Of a stretch of DNA of 64,000 nucleotides, positions 23,949 to 64,000 are shown piece after piece (the stretch's first letter is position 1; the number at the start of each line of letters is the position of its first letter). The notes under the pieces were generated by a model. It searched no databases, was not told the origin of the DNA, and saw only the letters and a list, made by a program, of their open reading frames with translations. The stretch lies in IMG/VR virus record IMGVR_UViG_3300044645_001661. One strand, given 5' to 3'. The DNA is from a virus. Lineage: Duplodnaviria; Caudoviricetes. The translations under genes and the position numbers were made by a program.

Positions 23949-23993
23949 TATTGTTTGGTAAAGAATTATATGTTCTTTACCTTTTTTATTACC

Positions 23994-24001
23994 TATAAAT
24001 A
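23994..24001 (+). promoter_or_regulatory. T4-type late promoter
   Basis: Exact TATAAATA upstream of the first island gene. Confidence 0.75.
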
Positions 24002-24022: not shown

Positions 24023-25105
24023 TTGATGAAAAAATTATTTAAAATATTGACAAGTGAAAGAGTTGAATATAATAAAAAAAGTATAAAAATTTTTGATATG
24101 TTGAGATATTCATCCCATATTAGTAATATTTTGGAAAGTGACAAAAATAATTATATTAAAAATATGTGTTTATTTTTGGGAAAAAAAATAAGTAATAATA
24201 CAATCTTTTTTATTGATGATGAGAAATTTGAGCAGCAATACGAAAAACTTGAAGTATTTTTTGAGTTTATAAAAAGAATAGATGCTAAAAATAAAAATAT
24301 AATTTATATTGTAAAAACACAAATATTTGCAGACTATTTTGAAAAGTATGGAATAAAAAATTATATATTTGAACCATTATTGGAAGTTATTAATTTTTAT
24401 TATGGGTCTTTCAGAATAAGAAAATCTTTAGTAGGTGATAAAATAAAAGATGTATCATTTTGTTCATTGAATGGTACAAAAAATCAAGTTAGAGAATTTC
24501 TATTGTATAGATTAAATGATTATAATTTGTTACCTGAGGGATATGTTACTGCATGTGGACAATTTTTTCTCGATTTAAATGGTGAAGTCAAAAACCATAT
24601 ATTTGAAGATAAATTTTTTGATAAATTTTATTATGATGAAGGTCATAAATATTATCAAGATAAAAATTTAGTAAATATTCTTTATATTGATAAAAATATT
24701 CCAGGAAATATTTTTTTAACTGTGGAGTCATTTAATTACGATAAAATAGAAGAATCATTAAGACCACTATATACTGAAAAAACTTCTACTCCATTTTTAA
24801 CAAAAAGATTGCCTTTAATTATTGGATATATGAATATTATTGAAAATCTTAAAATGGATGGGTTTGATATGTTTGATGATATAATTGATTATGAATATGA
24901 TAAAATTGATCACATGGACTATCAAAAAAAAGTTGATCTTTGTATAAAAAATAATTCACATATTCTTAAACATAATAATTTTTATGATAATCCAGAAATT
25001 GATGAGAGATTGGAATACAATAAAAAACATTATAATGTGTGGGTAGAAAATAAAATTTTAAACTTTGAATCTAATATAGAAGAAAAATTAAAGTTATTTG
25101 TTTAG
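24023..25105 (+). CDS. Hypothetical protein, possibly glycosyltransferase-like
   Basis: YTEKTSTPF...PLIIG...GFDMFDDIIDY resembles GT10-like segments; weak. Confidence 0.4.
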   Translation: MMKKLFKILTSERVEYNKKSIKIFDMLRYSSHISNILESDKNNYIKNMCLFLGKKISNNTIFFIDDEKFEQQYEKLEVFFEFIKRIDAKNKNIIYIVKTQIFADYFEKYGIKNYIFEPLLEVINFYYGSFRIRKSLVGDKIKDVSFCSLNGTKNQVREFLLYRLNDYNLLPEGYVTACGQFFLDLNGEVKNHIFEDKFFDKFYYDEGHKYYQDKNLVNILYIDKNIPGNIFLTVESFNYDKIEESLRPLYTEKTSTPFLTKRLPLIIGYMNIIENLKMDGFDMFDDIIDYEYDKIDHMDYQKKVDLCIKNNSHILKHNNFYDNPEIDERLEYNKKHYNVWVENKILNFESNIEEKLKLFV

Positions 25106-25112
25106 ATATATT

Positions 25113-25643
25113 ATGGAAGATAAATTTATTACTGGTAAAATAGATAGTAATTTAATTGGGGATTTTAAAAATATAGATTATCCTGGAAGAAGGCAATTTA
25201 GGGATGATGAAACTGTTGAGAGGTGGAAAAATCTTGGGCATTTGTATGTAAATTATACTGGATTTATTCGTGAAGAATATAGAGGTCTACCTGATTGGTG
25301 TAATTTAGTACTTGATGAAATAAAAAATCAATTAAAAATTTATAATATTTCTTGCTCTCTATATCGTATGCCTCCAGGAACAATAATGCCAGAACATAAA
25401 GATGCATATTTGAATTATAAAAAAATATTTAAAATAGATGATGTGAATAATATTTGTAGAGTATTAGTATTTTTGGATGATTGGAAATCTGGGCATTATT
25501 TTGAATTGAATGATAATCCAGTGATACAATGGAAATCTGGAGATTACTACATGTGGACTGGAGAAACACCACACATTGCTGCTAATATTGGAAGAGAAAA
25601 TAGATATACAATGCAGATAACTGGAACTATTGATCATGGATGA
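25113..25643 (+). CDS. Fe(II)/2-oxoglutarate-type oxygenase (cupin fold)
   Basis: MPEHKD (HxD), PHIAAN (distal His), RYTMQITG. Confidence 0.7.
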   Translation: MEDKFITGKIDSNLIGDFKNIDYPGRRQFRDDETVERWKNLGHLYVNYTGFIREEYRGLPDWCNLVLDEIKNQLKIYNISCSLYRMPPGTIMPEHKDAYLNYKKIFKIDDVNNICRVLVFLDDWKSGHYFELNDNPVIQWKSGDYYMWTGETPHIAANIGRENRYTMQITGTIDHG

Positions 25644-26361
25644 AAGAAGAGCCGTTATAGATGAGTTAGTAAAAAATTATCCTAATTACTGCTCAACCTT
25701 TACATTTAAATTGAAAAAAGGTATACCTGGAGAAGTAATACACAAAGAGGGTTTTGTTAACTGTTATATGGATGTAAAAAATTATCTTATTTACATGCAT
25801 ATTGATAAGTGTGCGAGTACATCAATAACTACTGCACTAAGAGATCAAAAACCATATTTTGTAAAAATGGATGATATTCCAAAATCTGAAGAATTTGCTA
25901 AACTTTTGGTCCAAAAAGAATATACATTTTTTACTGCAGTTAGAGATCCAATTTCTAGATGGATGTCTGGATTGAATGAATTTATGTGTAGATATAGACC
26001 TCCAATTAATTATGTTATTGAACAACTTAAAAATAAAAAATATGTTTTTGATGAGCATACCGCACCACAACATTTGTTTTTAAGATTATGTTTAGAAAAT
26101 AATGGAAATCTTATTTGTGTAAAAATGGATTCTGATATGGAATTTAAAATTAATGATGTTATTAGGTGTTCTTTAAAAAATGAATTTATGCGTGAAAAAT
26201 ATATCCCACTTAAAATTCCACAATTAAGGAGTTCAAAATATTTTATACCAAATTATATAAGTGTATGTAAAAAAATGTATGAAGTTTATGTAAAAAATGA
26301 TCCTGAAGAATTTAATAAATTATATAAAATTGATTTTGATTTATACAATAATGCACTATGA
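25636..26361 (+). CDS. Sulfotransferase (Sulfotransfer_2-like)
   Basis: MHIDKCASTS (5'-PSB-like), VRDPISRWMSG (3'-PB-like), DEHTAPQ. Confidence 0.75.
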   Translation: MDERRAVIDELVKNYPNYCSTFTFKLKKGIPGEVIHKEGFVNCYMDVKNYLIYMHIDKCASTSITTALRDQKPYFVKMDDIPKSEEFAKLLVQKEYTFFTAVRDPISRWMSGLNEFMCRYRPPINYVIEQLKNKKYVFDEHTAPQHLFLRLCLENNGNLICVKMDSDMEFKINDVIRCSLKNEFMREKYIPLKIPQLRSSKYFIPNYISVCKKMYEVYVKNDPEEFNKLYKIDFDLYNNAL

Positions 26362-26960
26362 ATAGTTTCGATACCGTAAAGAAATTAGAAGAATTAATAG
26401 CAAACTTTTTTGGATCACCATATGCAGTTGCAACTGATTGTTGTACCCATGCTATAGAATTGTGTTTAAGATATGAAAAGTATGACAATATTGAAATTCC
26501 AGAACAAACGTACATTTCAATTCCATTTACTGCAGAAAAACTTAATTTAAAATGGTCTTGGAAAAAAAATTATACCTGGCATGATCATTATTACATTTGG
26601 AATACAAATATAATAGATGCGGCTGTTTTTTGGGAACGGAATGGATATATACCAAAAACATATATGTGTTTAAGTTTTCAGTATAAAAAACATTTAAATC
26701 TTGGTAAAGGTGGCATGATACTATTAGACAATTATGATGCTTATACTGATCTTAAAAAAATGGTTTATGATGGTAGAGAATCTGATAAACCATGGGGAGA
26801 ACAGAACATTAAAACAATAGGATATCACTACTACATGACACCAGAAACTGCTGAAACTGGTATACATAAGTTTGAAGAAGTATCTTCTATGAAACCAAAA
26901 AGATGGAGTTATCTTAATTATCCATTTTTACCTAGTATGGATGTATTTAAAAAATTATGA
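26358..26960 (+). CDS. Short DegT/DnrJ/EryC1/StrS-like PLP enzyme
   Basis: CTHAIELCL, IIDAA, SFQYKKHL, GKGGMI; only 200 aa. Confidence 0.75.
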   Translation: MNSFDTVKKLEELIANFFGSPYAVATDCCTHAIELCLRYEKYDNIEIPEQTYISIPFTAEKLNLKWSWKKNYTWHDHYYIWNTNIIDAAVFWERNGYIPKTYMCLSFQYKKHLNLGKGGMILLDNYDAYTDLKKMVYDGRESDKPWGEQNIKTIGYHYYMTPETAETGIHKFEEVSSMKPKRWSYLNYPFLPSMDVFKKL

Positions 26961-27835
26961 ATTTAGATAATAAATTAAAAGGATTACCTCCAATATTTTA
27001 CCTAAATCTGGATCACAGAACAGATAGAAAGGAATATATGGAAGGGCAATTTAAAGAAAGAGGTATAACAGATTATACTAGAATATCAGCATCTCGATTT
27101 GCTACATCTAAAATTGATGAATGGGGGCATAGATTAGATTTGATGTTATTGGCTAAATCTGATGCATCTATCGTAATGAATCAGTTTACTACAATAATTG
27201 ATTGGTATAATTCTGGTATATCAGAAACTTGTATAATAATGCAAGATGATCTCAGTTTAGAATTAATTGATTATTGGATGTTTGATTGGGAAACAATTGT
27301 AAAAAGTTTGCCATATAATTGGGATTGTGTTCAATTTTATCATTGTCATAATGAAGAAATGCGTATGCACTTACATAAAAGAAGTTATGGAAGCTCATCT
27401 GCTGCTTGTTATATGATTAATAGATGGTACGCAGAAAAATTAATTAAATTGCACTTGCAACCAGATAATTCATTCAAACTTAAAAATAATTTAAAAGATG
27501 TAAGTGTTCCTAAAGAGTGTTATAGTAGTGATGATTTTCTATTATATCAAATTGGTGTAAGTTATAGTTTACCAATTTTGTGTTTGAATCAAAGACTTTC
27601 TCAAACTCCCGATAACAAATTGCAGGAAGATGAAACTGATGAAGACTATGATCCAGTAATAAGCATATATCATAATAAAATTCATGATATACTTGCTAGT
27701 ACATGTGTGAGAAGATGGTGGGAGAATGAAAGTTCAAAATATAAAGCGGAAGATATTTTAAGTTACGGTGGTTCAATCCATAGAAAAATGATCGTTCCTA
27801 TTCCTAAATTTAACAGAAAGGTACTTCCAAAATGA
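26957..27835 (+). CDS. GT25-like glycosyltransferase, copy 1
   Basis: FYLNLDHRTDR, IIMQDD, LPYNWDCVQ. Confidence 0.8.
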   Translation: MNLDNKLKGLPPIFYLNLDHRTDRKEYMEGQFKERGITDYTRISASRFATSKIDEWGHRLDLMLLAKSDASIVMNQFTTIIDWYNSGISETCIIMQDDLSLELIDYWMFDWETIVKSLPYNWDCVQFYHCHNEEMRMHLHKRSYGSSSAACYMINRWYAEKLIKLHLQPDNSFKLKNNLKDVSVPKECYSSDDFLLYQIGVSYSLPILCLNQRLSQTPDNKLQEDETDEDYDPVISIYHNKIHDILASTCVRRWWENESSKYKAEDILSYGGSIHRKMIVPIPKFNRKVLPK

Positions 27836-28695
27836 ATATAGAATTAAATAAATTAAAAACAATAGGATTTCCCAAAGTTTTTTATTTGAATGCGGATTCT
27901 AGACCAGATAGGGGAAATTATATAGAATCATGTTTTGAAAAATGGGGAATAGAACGATACGAAAGAATTCCTACAAGTAGATATACTCCAACCAATTATC
28001 ATGAATGGGAAGATTTAATTTTAGATGATAATATTTTACAAACTCCAGAGGAAATATCTAAAACTATCAATCATTTAAAAACAATAATTGATTGGTATGA
28101 TAATGGGGATGAAGAATATTGTATAATAATGGATGATATTATTGATATTAACTCAATAGATACTTGGATGTTTGATTGGGAAACTCTATATAAAAATCTT
28201 CCATATAATTGGGATTGTGTGCATCTATTCTTTTATAGTAATAGAACTATTAATATGCACCTAAAACCAAAAGACGATGATACTAAGGGTGTGTATTGTT
28301 ATATGATAACACGACAATTTGCTAAAAAAATTAAACAACTTCATTATGTTGATGATAAGTTTAAATTTTTTGTTAATACTAGAAATTTAAAACTACCAGA
28401 ATATAAGTATGGATCTCTAGAATCATTTTTATTTGATTTGGGTATAACCTATACATTGCCCGTATTTTATTTGAGTCTAAAATATTTTGGTGAACCTAAA
28501 GAATTGGAAGATATTTTATGTAAACTTTCTTCGGAATCTATTGAGTTTTGGTGGAAAATAAAGTCTAAAGAATTTTCCATGCAAGAATTTTTCTCATACA
28601 ATAAAAGATATGATTGGAAAATGGAAGTTCTTTTTGACGTAAAAGAAAAACAAGTATATATGGATAAAGTTGAAAAAATAATGTTATGGATTTAA
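27832..28695 (+). CDS. GT25-like glycosyltransferase, copy 2
   Basis: FYLNADSRPDR, IIMDDIID, LPYNWDCVH. Confidence 0.75.
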   Translation: MNIELNKLKTIGFPKVFYLNADSRPDRGNYIESCFEKWGIERYERIPTSRYTPTNYHEWEDLILDDNILQTPEEISKTINHLKTIIDWYDNGDEEYCIIMDDIIDINSIDTWMFDWETLYKNLPYNWDCVHLFFYSNRTINMHLKPKDDDTKGVYCYMITRQFAKKIKQLHYVDDKFKFFVNTRNLKLPEYKYGSLESFLFDLGITYTLPVFYLSLKYFGEPKELEDILCKLSSESIEFWWKIKSKEFSMQEFFSYNKRYDWKMEVLFDVKEKQVYMDKVEKIMLWI

Positions 28696-29540
28696 AGAAC
28701 AAATTAAAAAATATGCCGAAAGTCTATTATTTTAATTTGGATAATAGAACTGATAGAAAAAAATATATGGAAAAACAATTTGATAGGTGGGGCATAACCT
28801 ATCAAAGAATATCTGGAACAAAATACTTAGCATCAAAAAATAAAGAATGGAATCATTTAATTATTGATGTAAAAAATTATAAGTTATTAGTTCCAATTGC
28901 AGCTAATGCAATATCTCATTTGGAATTTTTGAAGAAATGGTATGAAGAAACAACAGATCCATATGTTCTGTTGATGGAAGATGATTATGATTTAAACTTG
29001 ATACAATATTGGCATTTTGATTGGGATTACTTGATGTCAAGATTGCCATATGATTGGGATTGCTTGCAACTAGGATTTGAAAATCCAATAGGGATACCTT
29101 TTTATCTTCATCCGATGGCAACCTCTCATGATTTTGGTCCATGTTTACTTAGTAGAGATTATGTTTATAAATTAATCTCATTACACTGTGTCGGTGATAA
29201 GTACAAGTTAATTAATACAATATCCAATGGTGCCTGGAATGCAGAAGAAGGTGGATGTGGTTCTGGAACGGTAGATTATTTTATATGCCACTGTGGAAAA
29301 ACCTATTCTATACCTTTAATAACAATAAATCCAACATTCGGTAGTTTCGAAAATAATAGTCTACTTCAAAAACTCTATAGAAATAATGGGGATGTAATGG
29401 CTAGAAATACATATTATTATTGGTGGCAAAATGAAAGAGATAAATTTACCTTAGATGATTTTTTTACTTATGGTAAAAAATATGACCGTAAGATGATATT
29501 GGATCAAAATAAATATGGAAACTATAGACCTAGAAAATAA
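28686..29540 (+). CDS. GT25-like glycosyltransferase, copy 3
   Basis: YYFNLDNRTDR, ISH, LMEDD, LPYDWDCLQLG. Confidence 0.82.
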   Translation: MDLKNKLKNMPKVYYFNLDNRTDRKKYMEKQFDRWGITYQRISGTKYLASKNKEWNHLIIDVKNYKLLVPIAANAISHLEFLKKWYEETTDPYVLLMEDDYDLNLIQYWHFDWDYLMSRLPYDWDCLQLGFENPIGIPFYLHPMATSHDFGPCLLSRDYVYKLISLHCVGDKYKLINTISNGAWNAEEGGCGSGTVDYFICHCGKTYSIPLITINPTFGSFENNSLLQKLYRNNGDVMARNTYYYWWQNERDKFTLDDFFTYGKKYDRKMILDQNKYGNYRPRK

Positions 29541-30420
29541 ATTAAGGGGATTCCCCCATGTATATTATTTTAATCTCGATCAAAAAACTGATCGTAAAAA
29601 GTACATGGAAACCCAATTTGATCGTTGGGGTATAGAATATACTAGAATGTCATCTAACATATATTCTATATGGAATTATGACGATTGGACTACAAATAAG
29701 GTAACTGGTGACAAAAGTGATACCGATCAAAGACTTTATGCCCCAGCAATGATGCATTTTGAGTTATTTAAAAGGTGGTTACATGATACAGACGAAGAAT
29801 ATATTCTTGTAATGGAAGATGATTATGATTTAAGTTTAATCGAATATTGGCATTTTGATTGGAATTATTTGATGTCTAAATTGCCTTATGATTGGGATTG
29901 TATTCAATTGGGATTTGAGACTTCAAATGTAATATCATTTTACCTTCATCCAGTAAAAGAAGATTATTCATTTGGACCATGTTTATTTAAAAGAGAATAT
30001 GTAGAAAAACTTTTAAGACTTCATTCTGAAGGATTTAAATATAGATTTGATTTTAACATTTCCAATTGTCATTGGAGAGATAGAAGAAATTATAAAAATG
30101 CTGCAGGTTCTTTAGAATATTTTATGTGTCAATCTGGAAGAACGTATTCAATTCCTTTAATCGCTTTAAATCCTTATTTTAGTTTTTGGTATTATAAGGA
30201 TAAATGGATACCAAAGTCTTACTTTCAAATGTGCTATGATTCTTATTATGATTGGTGGCAAAATGATAGAGACAAATTCACTTTAGATGATTTTTTTACT
30301 TATGGAAAGGTAAATGATAAAATTATGGAAAGAAATCTAGAATATTGTGACACTAAATATTTTGAAGAAAAGACCAAAGTATGTAGAGAAAAATTTTTGA
30401 AAGAATATGGATTTAAGTAA
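29515..30420 (+). CDS. GT25-like glycosyltransferase, copy 4
   Basis: YYFNLDQKTDR, VMEDD, LPYDWDCIQLG. Confidence 0.8.
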   Translation: METIDLENKLRGFPHVYYFNLDQKTDRKKYMETQFDRWGIEYTRMSSNIYSIWNYDDWTTNKVTGDKSDTDQRLYAPAMMHFELFKRWLHDTDEEYILVMEDDYDLSLIEYWHFDWNYLMSKLPYDWDCIQLGFETSNVISFYLHPVKEDYSFGPCLFKREYVEKLLRLHSEGFKYRFDFNISNCHWRDRRNYKNAAGSLEYFMCQSGRTYSIPLIALNPYFSFWYYKDKWIPKSYFQMCYDSYYDWWQNDRDKFTLDDFFTYGKVNDKIMERNLEYCDTKYFEEKTKVCREKFLKEYGFK

Positions 30421-31207
30421 TAAGTTATTCGGAATACCAAAAGTATATTATTTTAATTATGATGAGCATAAAAATAGAAATTACCATATGGACAGAAATC
30501 TTGGTAATTTGAAAGTTGCTAATTATGAAAAAGTTTCAGCATCAAAATATACTTCTAAAAATTATGAAGATTGGAAAAATTTGATTATTGATGTTGAGAA
30601 TTATAAATTAACTCCAAATATTGCTGGATATGCAATTACTGTATTGGAATTTTTAAAAAGATGGTTAGAAGAAACTGATGAACCAGAATTAATTATAACA
30701 AAAGATACTATTGATTTTGATTTAATTGAATACTGGAAATTTGATTGGAATTATTTAAAATCCAGACTTCCTTATGATTGGGATTGTATTCAACTTGGAT
30801 TTGAAAATTCTCAGTATATACCATTTTATTTACATCCAATACTTCCTTCTAGTACTTTTGGTCCATCACTTCTCAATAGACACTATGTTAAAAAAATAGT
30901 TAAATTGCATTGTGTTGGAGATCAATATAAGTTGAATAATTATATTGCAAATATGTATTTCAGTGGACAATCTGGAACAGTTGATTATTTTATTGGACAT
31001 AATGGCAATACATACTCAATGCCACTATTCCCTAATAAACCAGAATTTTTTGACAAGAATACTAAAAAGTATGTTTTAGTTTACATTTGTAAAAATGCAT
31101 ATCATGAATGGTGGAAGCGAGAAAGTGGCAAATTTAATTTGGATGAGATATTTACTTATGGAAAATATAATGATATTGGAATGGTAAAAAAACTTCGTAA
31201 AAAATAA
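30407..31207 (+). CDS. GT25-like glycosyltransferase, copy 5 (degenerate motifs)
   Basis: YYFNYDEHKNR, TKDT in place of MEDD, LPYDWDCIQLG. Confidence 0.7.
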   Translation: MDLSNKLFGIPKVYYFNYDEHKNRNYHMDRNLGNLKVANYEKVSASKYTSKNYEDWKNLIIDVENYKLTPNIAGYAITVLEFLKRWLEETDEPELIITKDTIDFDLIEYWKFDWNYLKSRLPYDWDCIQLGFENSQYIPFYLHPILPSSTFGPSLLNRHYVKKIVKLHCVGDQYKLNNYIANMYFSGQSGTVDYFIGHNGNTYSMPLFPNKPEFFDKNTKKYVLVYICKNAYHEWWKRESGKFNLDEIFTYGKYNDIGMVKKLRKK

Positions 31208-31215
31208 TTAAAATT

Positions 31216-32034
31216 ATGAACATTAATTTGTCAAACAAACTAAAAGGACTGCCACACATCTATTATGTAAATTTGGATAATAGATCTGATAGAAAAAAAT
31301 ATATGGAGTCCCAGTTTGATTTTTGGAGAATAAAAGATTACACTAGAGTATCTTCTTCAAAATACTTAGCATCTGAATCTGAATCTTGGGCAAATAAAGT
31401 TATTGATGGGAGCATAAAAAATCTATCATCATATGTTGTTGGTAATGCAATAACACACTTAGAACTTTTAAAAGATTGGGTTAATAATTCTAGTGATGAA
31501 TATGTCATTTTAATGGAAGATGATTATGATTTAAACTTGATACAATATTGGCATTTTGATTGGGATTACTTGATGTCAAGATTGCCATATGATTGGGATT
31601 GTATTCAATTGGGATTTGAATCAAAAGAATTTATTCCATTCTTTTTACATCCTAAATTGAGACATAGTTATTTTGGTCCTATTATGATTACTAGAGAGTA
31701 TGCTAAAAAAATATTGCGATTGCATTGTGTCGGTGAAGACAAATATAGTTTAGATAAATTAATTGCTGATTATAATTTTAAAGTTTGTTCTACTTCTGTA
31801 GATTACTTTATGGGACATACTGGCAGAACGTACTCTATTCCATTAATAACTACAAATGTTGATCTAGGTAGCACTGAAAGTGATATACAAATAGAAAGAA
31901 GACATCATGTTAAATCTAGAGCCGCATACTATTATTGGTGGATGAAGAGAAGTATGAAGTATAATCTAGATGAATTTTTTACCTATGGAAAACCAAATGA
32001 TCAAGAAATGGTTATTAGTACGGTTGACTATTAG
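31216..32034 (+). CDS. GT25-like glycosyltransferase, copy 6
   Basis: YYVNLDNRSDR, ITH, LMEDD, LPYDWDCIQLG. Confidence 0.82.
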   Translation: MNINLSNKLKGLPHIYYVNLDNRSDRKKYMESQFDFWRIKDYTRVSSSKYLASESESWANKVIDGSIKNLSSYVVGNAITHLELLKDWVNNSSDEYVILMEDDYDLNLIQYWHFDWDYLMSRLPYDWDCIQLGFESKEFIPFFLHPKLRHSYFGPIMITREYAKKILRLHCVGEDKYSLDKLIADYNFKVCSTSVDYFMGHTGRTYSIPLITTNVDLGSTESDIQIERRHHVKSRAAYYYWWMKRSMKYNLDEFFTYGKPNDQEMVISTVDY

Positions 32035-32052
32035 ATAAAAAATGATTATAAT
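32024..32052 (+). promoter_or_regulatory. Sigma70-type promoter for amidinotransferase and dehydrogenase
   Basis: TTGACT-17 nt-TATAAT. Confidence 0.75.
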
Positions 32053-32064
32053 GTCTTTATTTAA

Positions 32065-33039
32065 ATGTATAGTACAAATGAGTGGGGAAAATTAAAAAAA
32101 ATTATAGTCGGTGTGGCTGACTATGCAGTAGTTCCTCCAGTTGATAAAAGTTTAAGGACAATTAACTATGCGGATTTAAAAGATACCTCCACAGTAAAAG
32201 TTGGACCATATCCAGATCAAGTAATTCAAGAAGCAAATGAAGATTTAGAAATACTTGTAAATTTTTTAAAATCTCAAGATGTAGAAGTTTTGAGACCAAA
32301 AAGAGAAAAAACTGATTACTACAACTATTGCCCAAGAGATTGTGTATTTGTTCATGGTGAAGTTGCATTAGCAACACCCATGCCATTAAGGTCTAGACTA
32401 GGTAATTGGAGATCTTATTCACACCATCTAACCGATGTGGTTGAAATGCCATGTTGCTATTTTGATGATCTCTATAATGAAGAATGTGTTGGTGATCCAG
32501 ATATTCTTGCATTAACTGAAATAACACCAGCATTTGATGCTGCTAACATAATTCGGGCAAACAATGAGATTTTGTATCTTGTATCAAATAGTGGAAATAT
32601 TGCAGGAGCAAAATATTTACAATCACTTTTAGATGAACACTACAATGGAGAAGTTCAAGTAAATCTTCTTCAAAATGTTTATTCATATGTTCATATTGAT
32701 ACTACTATTGCATTTTTGAGAGAAGGTCTTTTACTGGCAAATCCAAGTAGAATAAAAGATAAAGATGATCTACCAGAACCATTTAACGAGTGGGAAATAA
32801 TTTGGTGCCCAGAACCTGTAGACACTGGTTACTATCCAGGTTATAATCATGCATCACCTTGGTCCAATATGAATTTGCTTAGTGTTAGTCATGAGTTAGT
32901 TGTTTTGGAAGAACATCAACATCCTACTAGAAAGGTATTGGAAAGATATGGGATTGAGTGTGCTATGCTTCCTATGAGGCAGCAAAGAACATTGAGTGGT
33001 GGATTCCATTGCGTAACTTTAGATCTTGAGAGGGAATGA
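32065..33039 (+). CDS. Amidinotransferase (glycine/inosamine-phosphate amidinotransferase family)
   Basis: NEWGKLKKIIVG, CPRD, FDAAN, HIDTT, GGFHCVTLD. Confidence 0.88.
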   Translation: MYSTNEWGKLKKIIVGVADYAVVPPVDKSLRTINYADLKDTSTVKVGPYPDQVIQEANEDLEILVNFLKSQDVEVLRPKREKTDYYNYCPRDCVFVHGEVALATPMPLRSRLGNWRSYSHHLTDVVEMPCCYFDDLYNEECVGDPDILALTEITPAFDAANIIRANNEILYLVSNSGNIAGAKYLQSLLDEHYNGEVQVNLLQNVYSYVHIDTTIAFLREGLLLANPSRIKDKDDLPEPFNEWEIIWCPEPVDTGYYPGYNHASPWSNMNLLSVSHELVVLEEHQHPTRKVLERYGIECAMLPMRQQRTLSGGFHCVTLDLERE

Positions 33040-34259
33040 TTATGGAAATTGGATTTATTGGTTTGGGTAAATTGGGTATGGCATGTGCCGAAGAAATTTT
33101 TTTGCAAGGGCACAATGTATACGGATATGATATTTCACCTAAAGATAGTGATCTAATAAAAGTTAAAAATAATATCAAAGAAGTTGTAGAATTGAGTGAT
33201 ATTGTCTTTATTGCTGTTCCAACTCCCCATGATCCAGAATATGATGGAAGTAAACCATGCATGGATCTTCAACCAAAAGATTTTAGTTATGATATTGTAA
33301 AGGAATGTTTGGTTGAAGCAAACAAATATATGAATAAGAATCAACTACTTGTGTTGATTTCTACAGTTCTTCCTGGAACAACTAGAACACAGTTTTGTAA
33401 TTTGGTTACTAATACACGATTTGTTTATAATCCGTATTTAATTGCAATGGGATCTGTTGCTTGGGATATGGTTAATCCAGAAATGGTAATGATTGGAACC
33501 GAAGATGGGAAAACAAATGGTGATGCTAAACAATTAATTGATTTTTATAAAACAATAATGCAGAATGATCCTGCATATGTTGTTGGGACTTGGGATGAAT
33601 GTGAATGTATTAAAGTATTCTATAATACGTTTATTAGTAATAAAATTAGTTTTGTCAACATGATTCAAGATGTTGCTGAACGTTCTCATAATATTAATGT
33701 TGATGTTGTTACTAGTGCTCTTTGCTTAGGTGCTTCTAGAATTATTAGTACACATTATATGAAGGCAGGTATGGGTGATGGTGGTGCCTGTCATCCTAGA
33801 GATAACATTGCCCTTCGCTATCTTGCAAAAAAACTAGATTTGGGATATGACCTTTTTGAAGGAATTATGCGTTCTAGAGAAGTTCAGGCAAAAAATCTTG
33901 CGAAAAAATTAGTTGAACTTGCTAATGATGAATTGCCAATTGTTATTCATGGCAAAGCATACAAACCAAAAGTTCCTTATATTGATGGGAGTTATAGTAT
34001 TTTAGTTGGTCATTACTGTACGGAGATGGGCAAACCTCCAATCTATGTTGACAAATATACTGGAGACGAATATACTCCTAATGGTCCTGCAGTATTTCTT
34101 CTCGCACATAGTGCATCTACAACTTATTGGCATGATGGAAGTGATGACGAACTTTATTGTGATATTCCAGAAGGAAGTATTGTTTTGGATCCTTGGAGAA
34201 AGTTTAAATCGGACAATATTACTGTAATTCACTATGGTAATACCCGATTCAATCCTTGA
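33036..34259 (+). CDS. UDP-glucose/GDP-mannose 6-dehydrogenase family protein
   Basis: IGFIGLGKLG Rossmann motif, FIAVPTP, STVLPGTT, YNP, GDGGACHPRD. Confidence 0.9.
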   Translation: MIMEIGFIGLGKLGMACAEEIFLQGHNVYGYDISPKDSDLIKVKNNIKEVVELSDIVFIAVPTPHDPEYDGSKPCMDLQPKDFSYDIVKECLVEANKYMNKNQLLVLISTVLPGTTRTQFCNLVTNTRFVYNPYLIAMGSVAWDMVNPEMVMIGTEDGKTNGDAKQLIDFYKTIMQNDPAYVVGTWDECECIKVFYNTFISNKISFVNMIQDVAERSHNINVDVVTSALCLGASRIISTHYMKAGMGDGGACHPRDNIALRYLAKKLDLGYDLFEGIMRSREVQAKNLAKKLVELANDELPIVIHGKAYKPKVPYIDGSYSILVGHYCTEMGKPPIYVDKYTGDEYTPNGPAVFLLAHSASTTYWHDGSDDELYCDIPEGSIVLDPWRKFKSDNITVIHYGNTRFNP

Positions 34260-34306
34260 CTAGAATTTTTAAATCTGTTATCCTTTTAAAGAGAAATTAA
34301 AAACTT

Positions 34307-34717
34307 ATGAAAATCATTGATACTAAAAAATATATTGAATTCGTTCGACAAACAACTAGTCCTGCTAGCAGTGATTTTGCACAACTTCTTGCTCGTATGA
34401 CTGAACTCGAAGCAACTCATGATGCTGATGTTCCTCGTCTTTTGACTGCTGCTTTTGGTATCAGTGCAGAAGCAGGTGAGTTTACTGAAGTTGTAAAAAA
34501 AATCTTCCTTCAAGGAAAACCTTATAATGAAGAAAATGTTTTTCACCTGAAACGTGAACTTGGTGATATTTGTTGGTATCTTGCACAAGCTTGTATGGCA
34601 CTTGACACTAACTTTGAAGAAGTTCTTCAAATGAATTTTGAAAAACTGAGTGCTCGTTATCCTGAAGGTTCTTTTGATGTTTATCGATCTGAAAATCGAG
34701 TAGAAGGAGATCTTTGA
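34307..34717 (+). CDS. mazG: MazG-like NTP pyrophosphohydrolase
   Basis: AEAGEFTEVVKK, KRELGDICWY, KLSARYP. Confidence 0.92.
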   Translation: MKIIDTKKYIEFVRQTTSPASSDFAQLLARMTELEATHDADVPRLLTAAFGISAEAGEFTEVVKKIFLQGKPYNEENVFHLKRELGDICWYLAQACMALDTNFEEVLQMNFEKLSARYPEGSFDVYRSENRVEGDL

Positions 34718-34724
34718 TATTATG

Positions 34725-34755
34725 CCTCCCAAATTGGGAGGTTTTTTTATAAATA
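34725..34755 (+). terminator. Terminator fused to a late promoter
   Basis: CCTCCCA-AAT-TGGGAGG plus T7, running into TATAAATA at 34748-34755. Confidence 0.8.
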
Positions 34756-59020: not shown

Positions 59021-59717
59021 AATTGCACTGTTATATTCAGGTCAACCAAGGCACCTGAAAGAATGTTATGAGAATCATCGTCAGACTTTTTGGGATGCAA
59101 ATCCCGATTGTGAGATTGATGTGTTTGCTCATATTTGGTATGATGAAGCATGGGTTGGAACTTATTTTTGGGATCAATATAAAGATCGTGGACGTTGGGA
59201 AGCAGATCTTAAAGAGTTCATGATTGATAAATGGCAACCTAAAGGACTTGTCTTTGAAGAACCAAAAGAATTTGAAGCAGAAGATATTCATCCAGATCCT
59301 AGATTTCCTCACCCAGTTAATAACATCATCTCAATGTTTTATAGTTTGAGTGAAGCAAATAACCTCAAGAAAAAATATGAGGAAGAAAATAACTTCAAAT
59401 ATGATTGTGTTATTCGTCTAAGAACTGATGAATATTTTAATACTTCTATCGGTCCTATTTCAAATTATGATTTAAATACCGTGAATATACTCAATGAGTG
59501 GGCACATGTTGATCATGGTATTAACGATCATTTTGCATTTGGATCATCTGAATTGATGGATAAATATCTTGACGTATTTGACAATTTTGTTAAAATATGT
59601 GAAATGGGTGCGGAAATTAATCCAGAATGCCTTATTGGGTTTAATGCACAAAAAAGGCATAATCTTCCCATCAATAAAAATAACTGGAACTATGTACTTT
59701 GGAGAGACAAAAAATAA
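59013..59717 (+). CDS. Uncharacterised glycosyltransferase-like protein, paralog A
   Basis: KIALLYSGQPR, SMFYS, YDCVIRLRTD, NDHFAFG. Confidence 0.55.
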   Translation: MSKIALLYSGQPRHLKECYENHRQTFWDANPDCEIDVFAHIWYDEAWVGTYFWDQYKDRGRWEADLKEFMIDKWQPKGLVFEEPKEFEAEDIHPDPRFPHPVNNIISMFYSLSEANNLKKKYEEENNFKYDCVIRLRTDEYFNTSIGPISNYDLNTVNILNEWAHVDHGINDHFAFGSSELMDKYLDVFDNFVKICEMGAEINPECLIGFNAQKRHNLPINKNNWNYVLWRDKK

Positions 59718-61093
59718 TGACAACCAAACTCGTTATCTTTGATTTGGATGGAGTCCTAATCGACAGCAAAGATTATCACTATGAAGCATTAAATCAGGCA
59801 CTTGGGGAAGAGTATGCTATTAGTAGAGAAGAACATGTCAGCATTTACGACGGTCTTCCCACCAAAGCAAAACTAGAACTTTTAACTAGAAATAAAGGTC
59901 TTCCTGTAGACCTTTATGATAAGATTTGGAGAGATAAGCAAGAGGCAACACTGAAGATTTTTAATGATTGTGTTGCAAAAGATTATGAGTTGATGGGATA
60001 CTTCCAACAACTTGTAGATGCAGGATATAAGATTGCTGTTGCATCTAACAGTATTCGGAATACTGTAAAGATTATTCTCTTGCGTCTTGGTCTTCTGGAA
60101 TTTGTGGATATGTACGTCTCTAATGAAGACGTTGTTCGCAACAAACCTTTTCCTGCAATGTATTGGAAGTGCATGACTGCTCTTGGAGCACTTCCTGCAG
60201 ATACTGTTATTGTTGAAGATAGTCATATTGGTCGTCAAGGTGCTCTTGATAGCAAAGCACATCTTGTTCCTGTAGAAGATCGCAAAGATCTTAATCAGGT
60301 AAAAATTGATCGTATTAAAAAAATTCTGAATGGTACAAAACAAAAAGTGGCATGGGAGAGCAAAACAATGAACGTTCTTATTCCTATGGCAGGTGCTGGT
60401 AGCAGATTTGCTAGTCAGGGTTACACCTTCCCTAAACCTTTGATTGAAGTTAAAGGTAAACCAATGATTCAAGTGGTTGTTGAGAACCTTAACATCAAAG
60501 CAAACTATACCTTTATTGTTCAAAAAGAACATTATGAAAAGTATAATCTGAATTATCTACTTCCTTTGATTGCTCCTGGATGCAATATTGTTCAAGTTGA
60601 TGGATTAACAGAAGGTGCTTGCTGCACTACTCTTCTTGCTAAAGAATTTATTGATAATGATGAACCTCTTGTGATGGCAAACTCTGATCAGTTTGTCGAA
60701 TGGGATAGCAACGAAACTCTCTATGCATTCCAAAATGGTGAAGTTGATGGTGGTATCGTAACCTTCCCTGCAACCCATCCCAAGTGGTCTTATGCTAAAC
60801 TTGGTGAAGAAGGTTATGTTGAGGAAGTTGCTGAGAAGAAACCAATCTCTGAACATGCCACTGTTGGCATCTACTATTGGAAGAAAGGTTCTGACTATGT
60901 TAAGTATGCAGAACAAATGATTGCTAAAGATATTCGTGTTAATAATGAATATTATGTTTGTCCAGTATTTAATGAAGCGATTGGTGATGGTAAAAAAATC
61001 CGCATCAAAGAAATCGATAAGTCTGGTATGTGGGGTATTGGTACTCCAGAAGATCTGAACTACTTCCTTGAACATTATAAAGGAGAAGTCTGA
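59717..61093 (+). CDS. HAD phosphatase / sugar nucleotidyltransferase fusion
   Basis: FDLDGVLID, KPFP, EDSHIG; then IPMAGAGSRF, PKPLI, ANSDQ, EKKPIS. Confidence 0.85.
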   Translation: MTTKLVIFDLDGVLIDSKDYHYEALNQALGEEYAISREEHVSIYDGLPTKAKLELLTRNKGLPVDLYDKIWRDKQEATLKIFNDCVAKDYELMGYFQQLVDAGYKIAVASNSIRNTVKIILLRLGLLEFVDMYVSNEDVVRNKPFPAMYWKCMTALGALPADTVIVEDSHIGRQGALDSKAHLVPVEDRKDLNQVKIDRIKKILNGTKQKVAWESKTMNVLIPMAGAGSRFASQGYTFPKPLIEVKGKPMIQVVVENLNIKANYTFIVQKEHYEKYNLNYLLPLIAPGCNIVQVDGLTEGACCTTLLAKEFIDNDEPLVMANSDQFVEWDSNETLYAFQNGEVDGGIVTFPATHPKWSYAKLGEEGYVEEVAEKKPISEHATVGIYYWKKGSDYVKYAEQMIAKDIRVNNEYYVCPVFNEAIGDGKKIRIKEIDKSGMWGIGTPEDLNYFLEHYKGEV

Positions 61094-61818
61094 TGAAAGT
61101 AGCACTTGCATTTTTTGGACAACCTAGATTTGTTGACAACCAACAAATTATTGATACTTACAAAGAAGTAATTCTTGACCGATATGATACTGATGTATTT
61201 GGTCATATGTGGTGGCAAGAAGATGGTGGCGAATATGATTATTCTTCTTGGTCTAGAATAAATAAATGTCCGATTTCTGAAGACGCCCCAGAAATTGTTA
61301 CTAATAATTATTCTCCTTTAATTTTAGGTATTGAAGATCCAAAAACTTTTGAATTGCCACCTAAAGCTAAAAAGTTTATAGATGAAAAGTTTACAGGTAA
61401 ACATCCAGATGGAAATCATTGGAATCCTAAAAACTATAGTAATGTAATGTCGCAATTGTATTCTATTAAATCCGTTGCAGAAATTATTAAATCATATTCC
61501 GAAGAAACAAATACTAGTTATGATTTTATTGTTTTAGCACGATATGATACCGTACTAATGAGATTTCCTGATCTTAACGCCTGCGACAAATATAAATTCT
61601 ATCTACCAGGGCATCATCCTAGATTCCCAGATACGATTCAATTTTTTGGACCAAAATATCTTACTTGGGCACTTAATGCATTTGATGATATTGAAGATGT
61701 TTATGAAGACATTTGGGAACCATCTCCAGAAGCATTTAAAATGGGATCATTTTTAAAATGGTTTGAACATTCTGACCTTGCCCCTTGTTCTATGGACGCT
61801 GCTTGTATTAGAGGTTAA
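61093..61818 (+). CDS. Uncharacterised glycosyltransferase-like protein, paralog B
   Basis: KVALAFFGQPR, SQLYS, YDFIVLARYD. Confidence 0.5.
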   Translation: MKVALAFFGQPRFVDNQQIIDTYKEVILDRYDTDVFGHMWWQEDGGEYDYSSWSRINKCPISEDAPEIVTNNYSPLILGIEDPKTFELPPKAKKFIDEKFTGKHPDGNHWNPKNYSNVMSQLYSIKSVAEIIKSYSEETNTSYDFIVLARYDTVLMRFPDLNACDKYKFYLPGHHPRFPDTIQFFGPKYLTWALNAFDDIEDVYEDIWEPSPEAFKMGSFLKWFEHSDLAPCSMDAACIRG

Positions 61819-61820
61819 TT

Positions 61821-62288
61821 ATGAAAATTATTGCACATAGAGGAAATATTGATGGTCCTAATCCTTTAACGGAAAACCATCCAGATACTATCGATAATGC
61901 TATATCAATTGGATTTGATGTTGAAATTGATATTAGATATGATACTTTTAATGATAAATTTTATCTAGGTCATGATGATCCACAATATGTTGTTACACCT
62001 TATTGGTTAGCTGAACGTATGGAAAAACTGTGGATTCATTGTAAAAACATTGAAGCACTTTATTATTTTGTTCATAAAACAGGTGGATATAATTATTTTT
62101 GGCATCAAACTGATAATTATACATTAACTAGTAAAAATTATATTTGGACATATCCTGGACAAACTTATACTCCATCTAGTATAATTGTTATGCCAGAAAA
62201 TTATATTAACCGAGACGAATTAAATAACTTGATTGCTTATGATTGTTATGGTGTTTGTACAGATTATCCTCAAAAAATAAAAAAATGA
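61821..62288 (+). CDS. Short glycerophosphodiester phosphodiesterase-like protein
   Basis: IIAHRGN, GFDVEIDIR, LGHD, GVCTDY. Confidence 0.7.
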   Translation: MKIIAHRGNIDGPNPLTENHPDTIDNAISIGFDVEIDIRYDTFNDKFYLGHDDPQYVVTPYWLAERMEKLWIHCKNIEALYYFVHKTGGYNYFWHQTDNYTLTSKNYIWTYPGQTYTPSSIIVMPENYINRDELNNLIAYDCYGVCTDYPQKIKK

Positions 62289-63235
62289 AAATTACATTAG
62301 TTGGACCAGGCATTATGCCTATTCCCCCTACTGGGTGGGGTGCAGTAGAAATATTAATTTGGGATACTAAACTTGCCCTAGAAGAATTGGGGCATGAAGT
62401 TCAAATTGTAAATACTAAAGATTATAGACAACTTATTAATGAAATAAATGCATTTGTACCAGATTTTGTACATGTGCATTATGATGAATTTATTGATCTT
62501 TGTCCGTATATTCAATATCCATCTGCAATTACAAGTCATTTCGGATATTTAGAAAGACCACAAATGTTTAATGGATACGCAAATGTTGCTAATCAATTTG
62601 CTTCTATTAAACCAAACATTTTTTGTTTATCGGAGGGGATCTCTAAAGTATATCAAATAATGTTTAATATACCAAAAGAGAATCTTTTTATTACTCCAAA
62701 TGGAGTTAATATTTCTCAATTTAAAGTTTCCGAATCGCCAAAATACCCAGATCGATCAATTTATCTTGCAAAAATTGACTATAGAAAGCGTCAACATTTA
62801 TTTCAATCTATCGATAGTCTTTGGTTTGCTGGAAATCTAGCAGATAGTAGATTTAATACCAATAAAAATTATTTGGGTGAATGGTCTAAAGAAACCTTAT
62901 ATGATGAACTTACGGATTATGGTAATCTCGTTCTTTTATCTGATGGTGAAGCACATCCATTAGTTTGTATGGAAGCACTTGCTGCAGGTCTTGGTGTGGT
63001 TGTATGTGAATGGGGTAAAGCAAATCTTGACCAATCCAAACCATTTATTACTATTATACCCGAAGATAAAATTGATGATTTGGAATATATTGAAGAAAAA
63101 ATTGTGAAAAATAGAGAATATTCAATTTCTCATCGAGAAGAAATTATAGAATATTCTAAAAACTTTGATTGGAAAGAAATTTTACAAAAATATTATATTC
63201 CTAGTATAATTGAAGTTATTGATAAGCATGGATAA
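62285..63235 (+). CDS. GT4-like (GT-B) glycosyltransferase
   Basis: IPPTGWGAVE, ITPNGV, EAHPLVCMEALAAGL; ATG at 62285. Confidence 0.8.
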   Translation: MKITLVGPGIMPIPPTGWGAVEILIWDTKLALEELGHEVQIVNTKDYRQLINEINAFVPDFVHVHYDEFIDLCPYIQYPSAITSHFGYLERPQMFNGYANVANQFASIKPNIFCLSEGISKVYQIMFNIPKENLFITPNGVNISQFKVSESPKYPDRSIYLAKIDYRKRQHLFQSIDSLWFAGNLADSRFNTNKNYLGEWSKETLYDELTDYGNLVLLSDGEAHPLVCMEALAAGLGVVVCEWGKANLDQSKPFITIIPEDKIDDLEYIEEKIVKNREYSISHREEIIEYSKNFDWKEILQKYYIPSIIEVIDKHG

Positions 63236-64000
63236 AAACAAATCAATGAGTAAGTTGAAAAACTTTGGACCAGTCTATTATTTAAATTTGGACGGTCAAC
63301 CAGAAAGAAAACAATTTATGGAAGATCAATTTTCTTATTGGGGAATTGATAATTATACTAGAATCTCTGCTTATGATGGTAGAGATGATGATTTAAGTGA
63401 CATTATTAAAGGGAGATATCCCGAAAATATGTCATCTGGTGAAGTTGGGTGTGTAACATCACATCTTAAAGCCATTGAATACTGGTATAATAATTCTGAT
63501 AGTCCTTATGCAATTATCATGGAAGATGATTGTAATATGGATATTGTTAGATTTTGGAATTTTACGTGGGAAGATTTTATTTCTAGAGTCCCTTATGATT
63601 GGGATGTTGTACAATTAGCAATTATTTGTACGGGAGATATCCACGTAAAAATACATAAAAGATTTGTAAATGAATTCTCTACTGCATGTTATGTGGTTAC
63701 TAGACATCATGCAGAAAAATTGATTCGTTTACATGGTAGAGGAGGTAAGTATAAATTGGATAATGGTGTAAAACCAAGACCAGTTGCCGATGATTTGTTG
63801 TATAATTCTGGTAATACTTATTCTGTTCCTTTATTATTATATAAACTTGAATTGGGATCTTCCATTCATCCAGATCATATTGATAATTTTCATAGAGCTA
63901 GTCATGATGGCATATTCAATTTTTGGTCTCAAGCAGGAGCTCAGTTGACAATTGATCAACTTACGGACTATGATCCATATCTGGGGAGAGTCACTGATCC
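63228..64000 (+). CDS. GT25 glycosyltransferase, copy 7 (canonical motifs; truncated by window end)
   Basis: Read manually: YYLNLDGQPER, GEVGCVTSH, IMEDD, VPYDWDVVQL; no stop before 64000. Confidence 0.85.
   Translation, partial: MDKNKSMSKLKNFGPVYYLNLDGQPERKQFMEDQFSYWGIDNYTRISAYDGRDDDLSDIIKGRYPENMSSGEVGCVTSHLKAIEYWYNNSDSPYAIIMEDDCNMDIVRFWNFTWEDFISRVPYDWDVVQLAIICTGDIHVKIHKRFVNEFSTACYVVTRHHAEKLIRLHGRGGKYKLDNGVKPRPVADDLLYNSGNTYSVPLLLYKLELGSSIHPDHIDNFHRASHDGIFNFWSQAGAQLTIDQLTDYDPYLGRVTD

Follow-up and report, generated by a model that had tools for sequence, protein, structure and literature searches.

Introduction

In bacterial loci for lipooligosaccharide (LOS), enzymes of glycosyltransferase family 25 (GT25) occur as two or more paralogues per glycan locus, each making one linkage, as in the lgt locus. 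These β-1,4-galactosyl/glucosyltransferases (LgtB, LgtE, Lic2A/B, LpsA; PDB 8xkd and related entries) share fold and family with six tandem genes at positions 26957–32034 of IMGVR_UViG_3300044645_001661, a Caudoviricetes record of which the stretch analysed here (the window, 64,000 nt) represents part of a phage genome. The array differs from the bacterial loci in that it lies in a phage, has six members and a distant seventh, and includes members that lack metal ligands and are nevertheless under selection. With moderate confidence, we read it as a fixed, tightly packed multi-enzyme GT25 set for glycan assembly, in which copies 2 and 5 are probably non-catalytic.

The catalytic residues of the family are best described for COLGALT1 (GLT25D1). 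There, Glu435 and Asp437 of the E-D-D motif chelate Mn2+, Asp436 binds the ribose, and the uridine is held by Gly408, Gly411, and Cys412 of one helix; the E435A, D437A, and C412S variants are inactive (PMC12003778). Replacing Arg354, which binds the diphosphate, by Ala inactivates the enzyme (R354A), and the "DXD" at 461–463 lies on the outer surface, remote from the active site (PMC11897130). The catalytic base is Asp522 (PMC12987934). The COLGALT1 family already contains catalytically dead structural relatives, namely the non-catalytic N-terminal GT-A domain of COLGALT1 itself and the inactive paralogue CERCAM (PMC12003778); the CHSY–CHPF heterodimer, according to PDB titles, is a precedent for an inactive GT-A partner. 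The phage proteins resemble the COLGALT1 catalytic domain in about 185 aligned residues (root-mean-square deviation ~3 Å), in E-D-D, in the N-terminal diphosphate Arg, and in a D-W-D surface motif. They differ in their low identity (15–22%), their single-domain build of 266–301 aa with a C-terminal helical extension of their own (WW...FFTYGK), and the G..GC..SH uridine helix, kept by none of the six; furthermore, the window has no collagen-like G-X-Y repeats.

Two viral systems are also close. Mimivirus R655 (PDB 9crz, a putative GT25) is single-domain and of similar size, but its gene stands alone, outside any paralogue array, and its GC..SH and E-D-D motifs are canonical; its activity is likewise unproven (PMC9546862). 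Synechococcus phage S-SCSM2R has four copies of the same phage family (phrog_2835) at one locus (open reading frames (ORFs) 302, 303, 304, and 307), again with short aminotransferase-like and amidinotransferase genes and with one degenerate copy (ORF 304), but its copies belong to other paralogue clades; they are given only as glycosyltransferases in PMC12801897. Most cyanomyovirus isolate records show a single, canonical match, and in the present material a six-member set with one-to-one orthologues is seen only in uncultured lake phages. GT25 paralogues in bacterial glycan loci are well known, and cyanophage GT25 genes are routinely annotated (PMC12801897); our search of the literature on cyanophage virion glycosylation found nothing specific. 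What appears to be undescribed is the six-plus-one complement in lake phages, its one-to-one orthology, and the invariant Q-D-D and K/R-D-T variants together with a predicted paralogue dimer.

Results

Array layout

The first-pass annotation, made from the sequence alone, proposed six adjacent paralogues of 266–301 aa, which both the ORF list and the alignment bear out:

26957–27835, plus strand, copy 1 (c1), 292 aa: GT25-like, Q-D-D for E-D-D and N-Q for S-H
27832–28695, plus strand, copy 2 (c2), 287 aa: GT25-like, M-D-D-I
28686–29540, plus strand, copy 3 (c3), 284 aa: GT25-like, full R / E-D-D / Asp set
29515–30420, plus strand, copy 4 (c4), 301 aa: GT25-like, E-D-D, C-terminal extension
30407–31207, plus strand, copy 5 (c5), 266 aa: GT25 fold, T-K-D-T for M-E-D-D and V for His
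31216–32034, plus strand, copy 6 (c6), 272 aa: GT25-like, full R / E-D-D / Asp set
63210–63998, plus strand, seventh family member: canonical cyanophage GT25 with GEVGCVTSH and MEDD, open at its 3′ end at the window end

Adjacent genes overlap by 4–26 nt at five of six junctions, counting that with the upstream DegT-like gene; c5 and c6 are separated by an 8-nt gap. The six copies align over their full length with each other and with the ORF at 63210; in this alignment, identity to c1 is 25–38%, and 25 columns are invariant, including Y15, N17, D19, R24, P119, Y120, W122, D123, Y203, and P206. The motif strings listed earlier for copies 1–6 (ASIVMNQ/MQDD, SKTINH/MDDI, ANAISH/MEDD, PAMMH/MEDD, YAITV/TKDT, and NAITH/MEDD, respectively) are all correct, as is the attribution of canonical GEVGCVTSH and MEDD to the separate GT25, whose ORF starts at 63210. 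The proposed common motif YS.P holds as a position, but not as an exact string: c2 has Y-T-L-P here, hence Y[ST].P.

Family and fold

The similarity of the paralogues is far above chance, since all six match phrog_2835 (phage "glucosyltransferase") over approximately 230–265 of 280 profile positions, with E-values from 9.5e-34 to 1.1e-49 (c1, 1.5e-40; c2, 2e-36; c4, 1.6e-37; c6, 1.1e-49). In the search with PF01755 (Glyco_transf_25), c3 (29.1 bits) is the sole copy above the cut-off of 24; c1 (17.7 bits), c4 (20.9), and c6 (21.5) remain below it, and c2 and c5 have no match. All these matches are confined to the N-terminal half of the model.

AlphaFold2 models of c3 and c5 (predicted local distance difference test (pLDDT) scores of 93.2 and 92.5, respectively) have the same GT-A topology. 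The fold comparison covers these two models, while c1, c2, c4, and c6 are assigned by alignment. The top structural match is the COLGALT1 catalytic domain (Z 15.1 for c3, 15.6 for c5); Mimivirus R655 scores 15.1 and 15.5, and bacterial β-1,4-galactosyltransferases reach 12.9 and 13.4, with entries between 12.6 and 13.4. The ten best PDB entries are all GT25 (Z 12.6–15.6); the next family is GnT-I (11.8–12.0), and generic GT-A folds do not exceed 12.0. In the comparison with Swiss-Prot models, GT25 members take the first 26 places, LgtB, LgtE, Lic2B, LpsA, and "inactive GT25 family member 3" among them. By sequence, the PDB search gives R655 as the sole match (E 0.0013, with the family profile), and COLGALT1 is reached by fold only. 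The GT25 assignment made at first pass is thus upheld, and the proteins having some other fold is not a tenable objection, because the structure comparison ranks only GT25 members on top. The six genes are anciently diverged members of a phage GT25-like family with the GT-A fold.

Catalytic residues of individual copies

Since COLGALT1 can be reached by fold only, residues were mapped via the R655 alignment and the aligned ranges (c3 model 7–232 against COLGALT1 chain 336–562). The following correspondences were used:

c3 R24: COLGALT1 R354
c3 A73-N74: COLGALT1 G411-C412
c3 S77: COLGALT1 S415
c3 E98-D99-D100: COLGALT1 E435-D436-D437
c3 D123-W124-D125: COLGALT1 ~461–463
c3 D197 (in G-T-V-D-Y-F): COLGALT1 D522, less surely

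In the window, the Arg of the N-terminal N.D...R and the candidate base Asp/Glu are present in all six copies, and the middle, ribose-binding Asp is invariant among them. The complete E-D-D motif is found in c3, c4, and c6; it is absent from c1 (Q-D-D), c2 (D-D-I in the window), and c5 (K/R-D-T/I).

Residue states were then scored over 18 orthologues per clade (nine for c4). Catalytic positions of c3 and c6 are canonical in 18/18 orthologues each, including the candidate base. Similarly, c4 is canonical throughout, with Arg and E-D-D kept in 9/9. In c1, Gln occupies the first metal-ligand position in all 18 orthologues, and the remaining positions (Arg, second and third Asp, candidate base Asp) are unchanged in all of them. 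In c5, the Glu position is always Lys or Arg (18/18), and the third Asp is always replaced by Thr, Ile, Gln, or Ser (18/18); the middle Asp and the candidate base Asp are invariant (18/18), and the diphosphate Arg is kept in 8/18. The c2 clade retains the third Asp in 2/18, Arg in 6/18, and Asp or Glu at the base position in 11/18 orthologues.

For the uridine helix, the Gly-Cys pair of G..GC..SH (COLGALT1 G408, G411, C412, S415) is found in none of the six copies. The positions of G411/C412 are occupied in c1–c6 by S-I, S-K, A-N, P-A, G-Y, and G-N, respectively, and GEVGCVTSH occurs only in the copy at 63210. Each clade has its own conserved version of this helix and of three further segments or loops. 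Strict criteria for specificity-determining positions proved too stringent, yielding one column only, and clade signatures are described instead. Old, individually conserved copies with clade signatures are the pattern expected of an expanded, subfunctionalised family, as had been suggested.

The suggestion that copy 5 might be non-catalytic is plausible: it lacks both Mn ligands in 18/18 orthologues and is under purifying selection (ratio of nonsynonymous to synonymous substitution rates (dN/dS) 0.059), and therefore a non-catalytic role can be entertained. As in a pseudo-glycosyltransferase, the ligands are lost, while the GT25 fold and the selection are retained; mean within-clade conservation of c5 is 0.72, vs. 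0.68–0.79 for c1, c3, c4, and c6. Judging by its residues, c5 is likely a pseudo-glycosyltransferase or a metal-independent variant. Beyond copy 5, c2 is also catalytically degenerate in this lineage. Other phage arrays likewise have one degenerate member: position 6 in the metagenomic loci L061–L066, position 3 in L084/L088, and ORF 304 in S-SCSM2R.

Predicted pairing of c5 and c6

The first-pass annotation called for structure prediction of hetero-oligomers. The predicted complex of c6 with c5 scored 0.89, vs. 0.56 for the best control. Of 80 solved complexes, 58 reach the mark used for pairing, as do two of 110 mismatched pairs; these rates hold only roughly because our own alignments were used. 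The three runs share at least 95% of their contacts, with partner pLDDT of at least 91. In the model, the two chains meet pseudo-symmetrically through the family-invariant motifs LPYDWD, TYS.PL, and FFTYGK, which fits the surface location of the COLGALT1 461–463 motif.

Orthology, selection, and copy number

Profile search of metagenomes yielded 451 relatives. Contigs with c1 orthologues at 97, 84, and 64% identity (loci L007, L002, L004–L006, and L008/L009) have the same architecture: helicase, cupin/Asp_Arg_Hydrox-like protein, sulfotransferase, short DegT-like protein, six GT25-like proteins, a protein of 320–326 aa, nucleoside-diphosphate-sugar (NDP-sugar) dehydrogenase, and MazG. Six genes in the same order and with the same flanks are seen in L002, L004–L008, and L010–L013, that is, in at least five diverged metagenomic lineages.

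In the maximum-likelihood tree, rooted with the copy at 63210 as the outgroup, each array position forms its own clade (support by the Shimodaira–Hasegawa-like approximate likelihood ratio test (SH-aLRT) 87–100), with the topology ((c1,c2),(c6,(c3,c4,c5))). The same six clades are obtained with support 82–100 in a tree of 121 sequences that includes IMG/VR loci and has the same outgroup. Therefore, the duplications are older than the split of the phage lineages, and the copies are one-to-one orthologues.

Nei–Gojobori dN/dS values against the nearest relative, L007, are 0.019, 0.082, 0.018, 0.040, 0.059, and 0.033 for c1–c6, respectively, at dS 0.56–1.13. Against L002, they are 0.08–0.27, with dS saturating; the upper value belongs to c2, the fastest-evolving copy, which has 54% amino acid identity to its L002 orthologue. 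The most conserved copy is c1. Neutral decay, named beforehand as an outcome that would speak against a functional array, is refuted by these comparisons.

Copy number was surveyed at 88 loci with the family hidden Markov model. Apart from those truncated by a contig end, every family ORF is full-length, and no frameshift or internal stop was seen in any surveyed orthologue. Arrays of deep lineages have 1, 2, 3, 3+1, 4+1, 5, or 6 copies from different paralogue clades. Copy 4 is missing from the five-copy arrays (L014–L022, L079), which branch within the six-copy clade; the 107-kb record that includes L014 (G001) has a gene of the c4 clade on the opposite strand, at a distance of 31 kb from the array (L089, 3162–4034, minus strand). 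Therefore, the complement of six and a canonical seventh is kept though the array is split. The c4 clade also includes the single-copy genes L060, L067, and L071. In each of the four whole records searched, one copy with a lower score lies outside the array; we take it to be of the canonical type.

The first-pass annotation had offered an accordion-like variable locus as an alternative. This does not hold for the phage and its near relatives, in which copy number, order, and flanks are fixed with synonymous sites near saturation. At greater depth a part of it stands, as array content does differ between deep lineages (1–6 copies); however, in five-copy relatives c4 was moved and not lost.

L061–L066 (e.g., L061, 5676–10961) carry six-gene GT25-like arrays of a second, independent type, whose copies come from other paralogue clades. 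In this type, the last member is degenerate, with M-S-D-H or M-P-D-H, Arg replaced by Leu, and the base Asp replaced by His.

Gene conversion between c3 and c6

Copies 3 and 6 share an identical tract:

28974–29062, plus strand: 89-nt tract in c3, in the region from M-E-D-D to P-Y-D-W-D, identical to the tract in c6
31513–31601, plus strand: 89-nt tract in c6, identical to the tract in c3

It is the longest exact run between c3 and c6; in every other pair of paralogues the longest run is 11–32 nt. Third codon positions of c3 and c6 are identical in 15/15 of codons 106–120, vs. about half elsewhere. As the pattern is absent at the protein level in L007, the tract is ascribed to recent gene conversion in this lineage. 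It is 79/89 identical to both L007 orthologues, and hence no direction of conversion can be read from it.

Genomic context

The window is of the T4-like cyanomyovirus type, with family B DNA polymerase, a RecA/UvsX-like protein, and a DnaB-type helicase upstream of the array, and DNA of the 8–12 kb region is 70–75% identical to that of many Synechococcus and Prochlorococcus myoviruses. With the array as query, Megablast gave no match among 50,697 phage records, and none of these records is near-identical. The array occurs near-unchanged in 20 lake-water metagenome runs from 20 studies (2020–2024); its carrier is widespread in fresh water and is not a marine phage. Contigs from four of the 20 runs tile positions 26000–33000, mostly with zero differences. 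Apparent deletion joints in lake contigs (e.g., 29330 to 31912 and 28790 to 30558) have sides of at most 44 nt at 85% likeness and were read as cross-matches between paralogues or relatives.

The neighbouring genes and signals, in order, are as follows:

23957–23981: terminator-like hairpin, followed by TATAAATA at 23994–24001, plus strand, just before the first island gene
24023–25105: first island gene, 360 aa
25098–25643, plus strand: cupin/Asp_Arg_Hydrox-like protein (PF05118-type; Pfam)
25630–26361, plus strand: Sulfotransfer_2 protein (Pfam)
26358–26960, plus strand: short DegT-like aminotransferase (Pfam)
32065–33039, plus strand: 324-aa protein, whose syntenic counterpart in S-SCSM2R is annotated as amidinotransferase
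33036–34259, plus strand: NDP-sugar dehydrogenase (Pfam; NCBIfam TIGR03026, 144.7 bits)
34307–34717, plus strand: MazG (Pfam)
34724–34755: matching pair of hairpin and TATAAATA, after MazG

The trio of cupin, sulfotransferase, and DegT-like genes precedes the array in L002 and L004–L009. NCBIfam leaves the cupin, sulfotransferase, and 324-aa proteins unnamed. The DegT/DnrJ-type aminotransferase has 200 aa, about half of the usual length, and keeps this size in all related loci as well as in S-SCSM2R, where its counterpart is annotated as 3-amino-5-hydroxybenzoate (AHBA) synthase. The 360-aa ORF is present in L002 and L007 and is replaced by 2-oxoglutarate-Fe(II) (2OG-Fe(II)) oxygenase genes in L004–L006; it is a variable accessory to the conserved cassette. 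It has no Pfam, PHROG, or NCBIfam match; a lead to GT10 (0.80) was treated as uninformative, the other matches being viral hypothetical proteins.

Hairpins with TATAAATA within ~15 nt bracket the island 24023–34717, MazG included. TATAAATA is T4-late-like, and the pattern might hint at one late transcription unit. It is only a hint, because the count of TATAAATA is not above chance: the window has six sites, all on the coding strand, with 11.7 expected from shuffling. Matches to sigma-70-like promoters in the window are at chance level.

A second sugar-related island lies at 59699–63998. It encodes a 464-aa protein with a HAD/beta-phosphoglucomutase-like domain fused to a sugar-1-phosphate nucleotidyltransferase, two unnamed ORFs, a 330-aa GT4-like glycosyltransferase, and the canonical GT25 copy.

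Discussion

The fixed order, one-to-one orthology, and purifying selection of all six genes fit best with the stepwise assembly of one defined, modified oligosaccharide by the products of an operon-like, presumably co-expressed block. By analogy with characterised GT25 enzymes, the active members would be inverting, nucleotide-sugar-dependent transferases. We infer catalysis by four copies: c3, c4, and c6, with the full residue set, and c1, with Q-D-D, would each add one sugar or form one linkage, and the differing nucleotide-binding helices and loops would set the choice of donor and acceptor. The remaining two, c5 in every lineage and c2 in this one, would probably be non-catalytic partners of catalytic paralogues, with contacts possibly made via the conserved family surface LPYDWDC, TYS.PL, and FFTYGK. 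The products of the flanking genes (sulfotransferase, DegT-like, NDP-sugar dehydrogenase, amidinotransferase-annotated, and cupin hydroxylase-like) may modify the sugars.

Several points weigh against this scheme. One glycan with one step per enzyme is deduced from gene order and conservation only. The threshold of the Pfam GT25 model is passed by c3 only, and the mapping to COLGALT1 falls short of residue-level superposition, with c3 D197 as the base being its weakest step. As none of the six keeps the canonical G..GC..SH helix, even the copies with otherwise intact active sites may use other donors or bind them differently. The predicted interface is common to all paralogues, so that the model is silent on which pairs form; its high score may reflect memory of solved GT25 dimers, and the control pairing of c5 with an unrelated protein reached the fairly high 0.56. 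Finally, c5, with its ribose Asp, candidate base, and constant Lys/Arg, also fits a metal-independent enzyme.

This last point leads to the main rival, in which all six copies are active and make six linkages: c5 would be metal-independent, its invariant Lys/Arg taking the place of Mn2+ in neutralising the diphosphate, c1 would use Gln as a neutral metal ligand, and c2 a shifted D-D pair. The invariant positions of c5 and an overall conservation equal to that of the canonical copies agree with it, and metal-independent GT-A enzymes exist, e.g., PDB 4ayj, titled "metal-independent bacterial glycosyltransferase". However, the diphosphate Arg is lost in 10/18 orthologues of c5; in c2, losses affect 12/18 orthologues at this Arg, 16/18 at the third Asp, and 7/18 at the base position; single E435A, D437A, and R354A substitutions each abolish the activity of COLGALT1 (PMC12003778, PMC11897130). 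Retained catalysis in c5 and c2 is hard to square with these losses of Arg, third Asp, and base across orthologues, and we consider activity of all six copies unlikely.

The scheme of a multi-enzyme set with non-catalytic c2 and c5 leaves room for different acceptors. One candidate is a phage (virion) or host protein instead of host lipopolysaccharide (LPS), maybe at residues hydroxylated by the cupin protein; it is compatible with the scheme, and we regard it as doubtful, as we do its likeness to the galactosylation of collagen hydroxylysine by COLGALT1 and to the role proposed for Mimivirus R655. These two are the closest solved structures, but the bacterial LOS enzymes of GT25 come close to them as matches to the models. 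Two genes upstream of the array, all lineages keep a PF05118-type hydroxylase-like gene; PF05118, however, also covers lipid-modifying hydroxylases. The hairpins and T4-late-like TATAAATA at the island borders would suit a virion target, but the count of the latter is not above chance, and collagen-like repeats are missing from the window. No family of lipid-carrier initiating transferases, flippases, or polymerases was found among the ORFs scanned in and beside the two glycan islands, the window being part of the genome, which also favours a protein acceptor.

A more elaborate version would have the seven members form a hetero-oligomeric glycosylation machine, with the pseudo-enzyme subunits c5 and c2 holding the catalytic GT25 proteins together, building a sulfated or amidino-modified oligosaccharide at cupin-hydroxylated residues of phage or host proteins. 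This is quite improbable; if true, the machine would be the phage counterpart of the LH3/COLGALT1 collagen-glycosylation complex and of giant-virus fibril glycosylation.

As for an accordion locus under host-range selection, with copies often gained, lost, or swapped and partly redundant, the varied arrays of deep lineages, the c3/c6 recombination tract, and the relocation of c4 in one lineage are in its favour. In contrast, copy number, order, and flanks are constant in the clade of the window at dS from 0.6 to above 1, each position is a separate old clade, the six-plus-one complement is kept when the array is split, and the array is tiled by contigs from four further lake metagenomes, among which no deletion or duplication joint is well supported; this makes an accordion very improbable. 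That most copies are decaying duplicates on the way to pseudogenes, as the departure of three of the six from E-D-D and the fast evolution of c2 might suggest, is practically untenable given dN/dS of 0.018–0.082 against L007 for all six, open frames, and altered motifs of c1 and c5 that are invariant across 18 lineages.

The array by itself reveals no new kind of system. Lists of cyanophage genes usually give "LPS" or glycosyltransferase entries without analysing them; here, widespread lake cyanomyovirus-like phages keep seven GT25-type proteins under strong selection. Natural variants, invariant Q-D-D and K/R-D-T in place of E-D-D, are thereby added to GT25, a family whose mechanism was solved structurally only in 2025–2026. 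The fixed complement and the preservation of two ligand-less copies speak for a glycan pathway that is defined, has several steps and possibly several subunits, and contributes to phage fitness.

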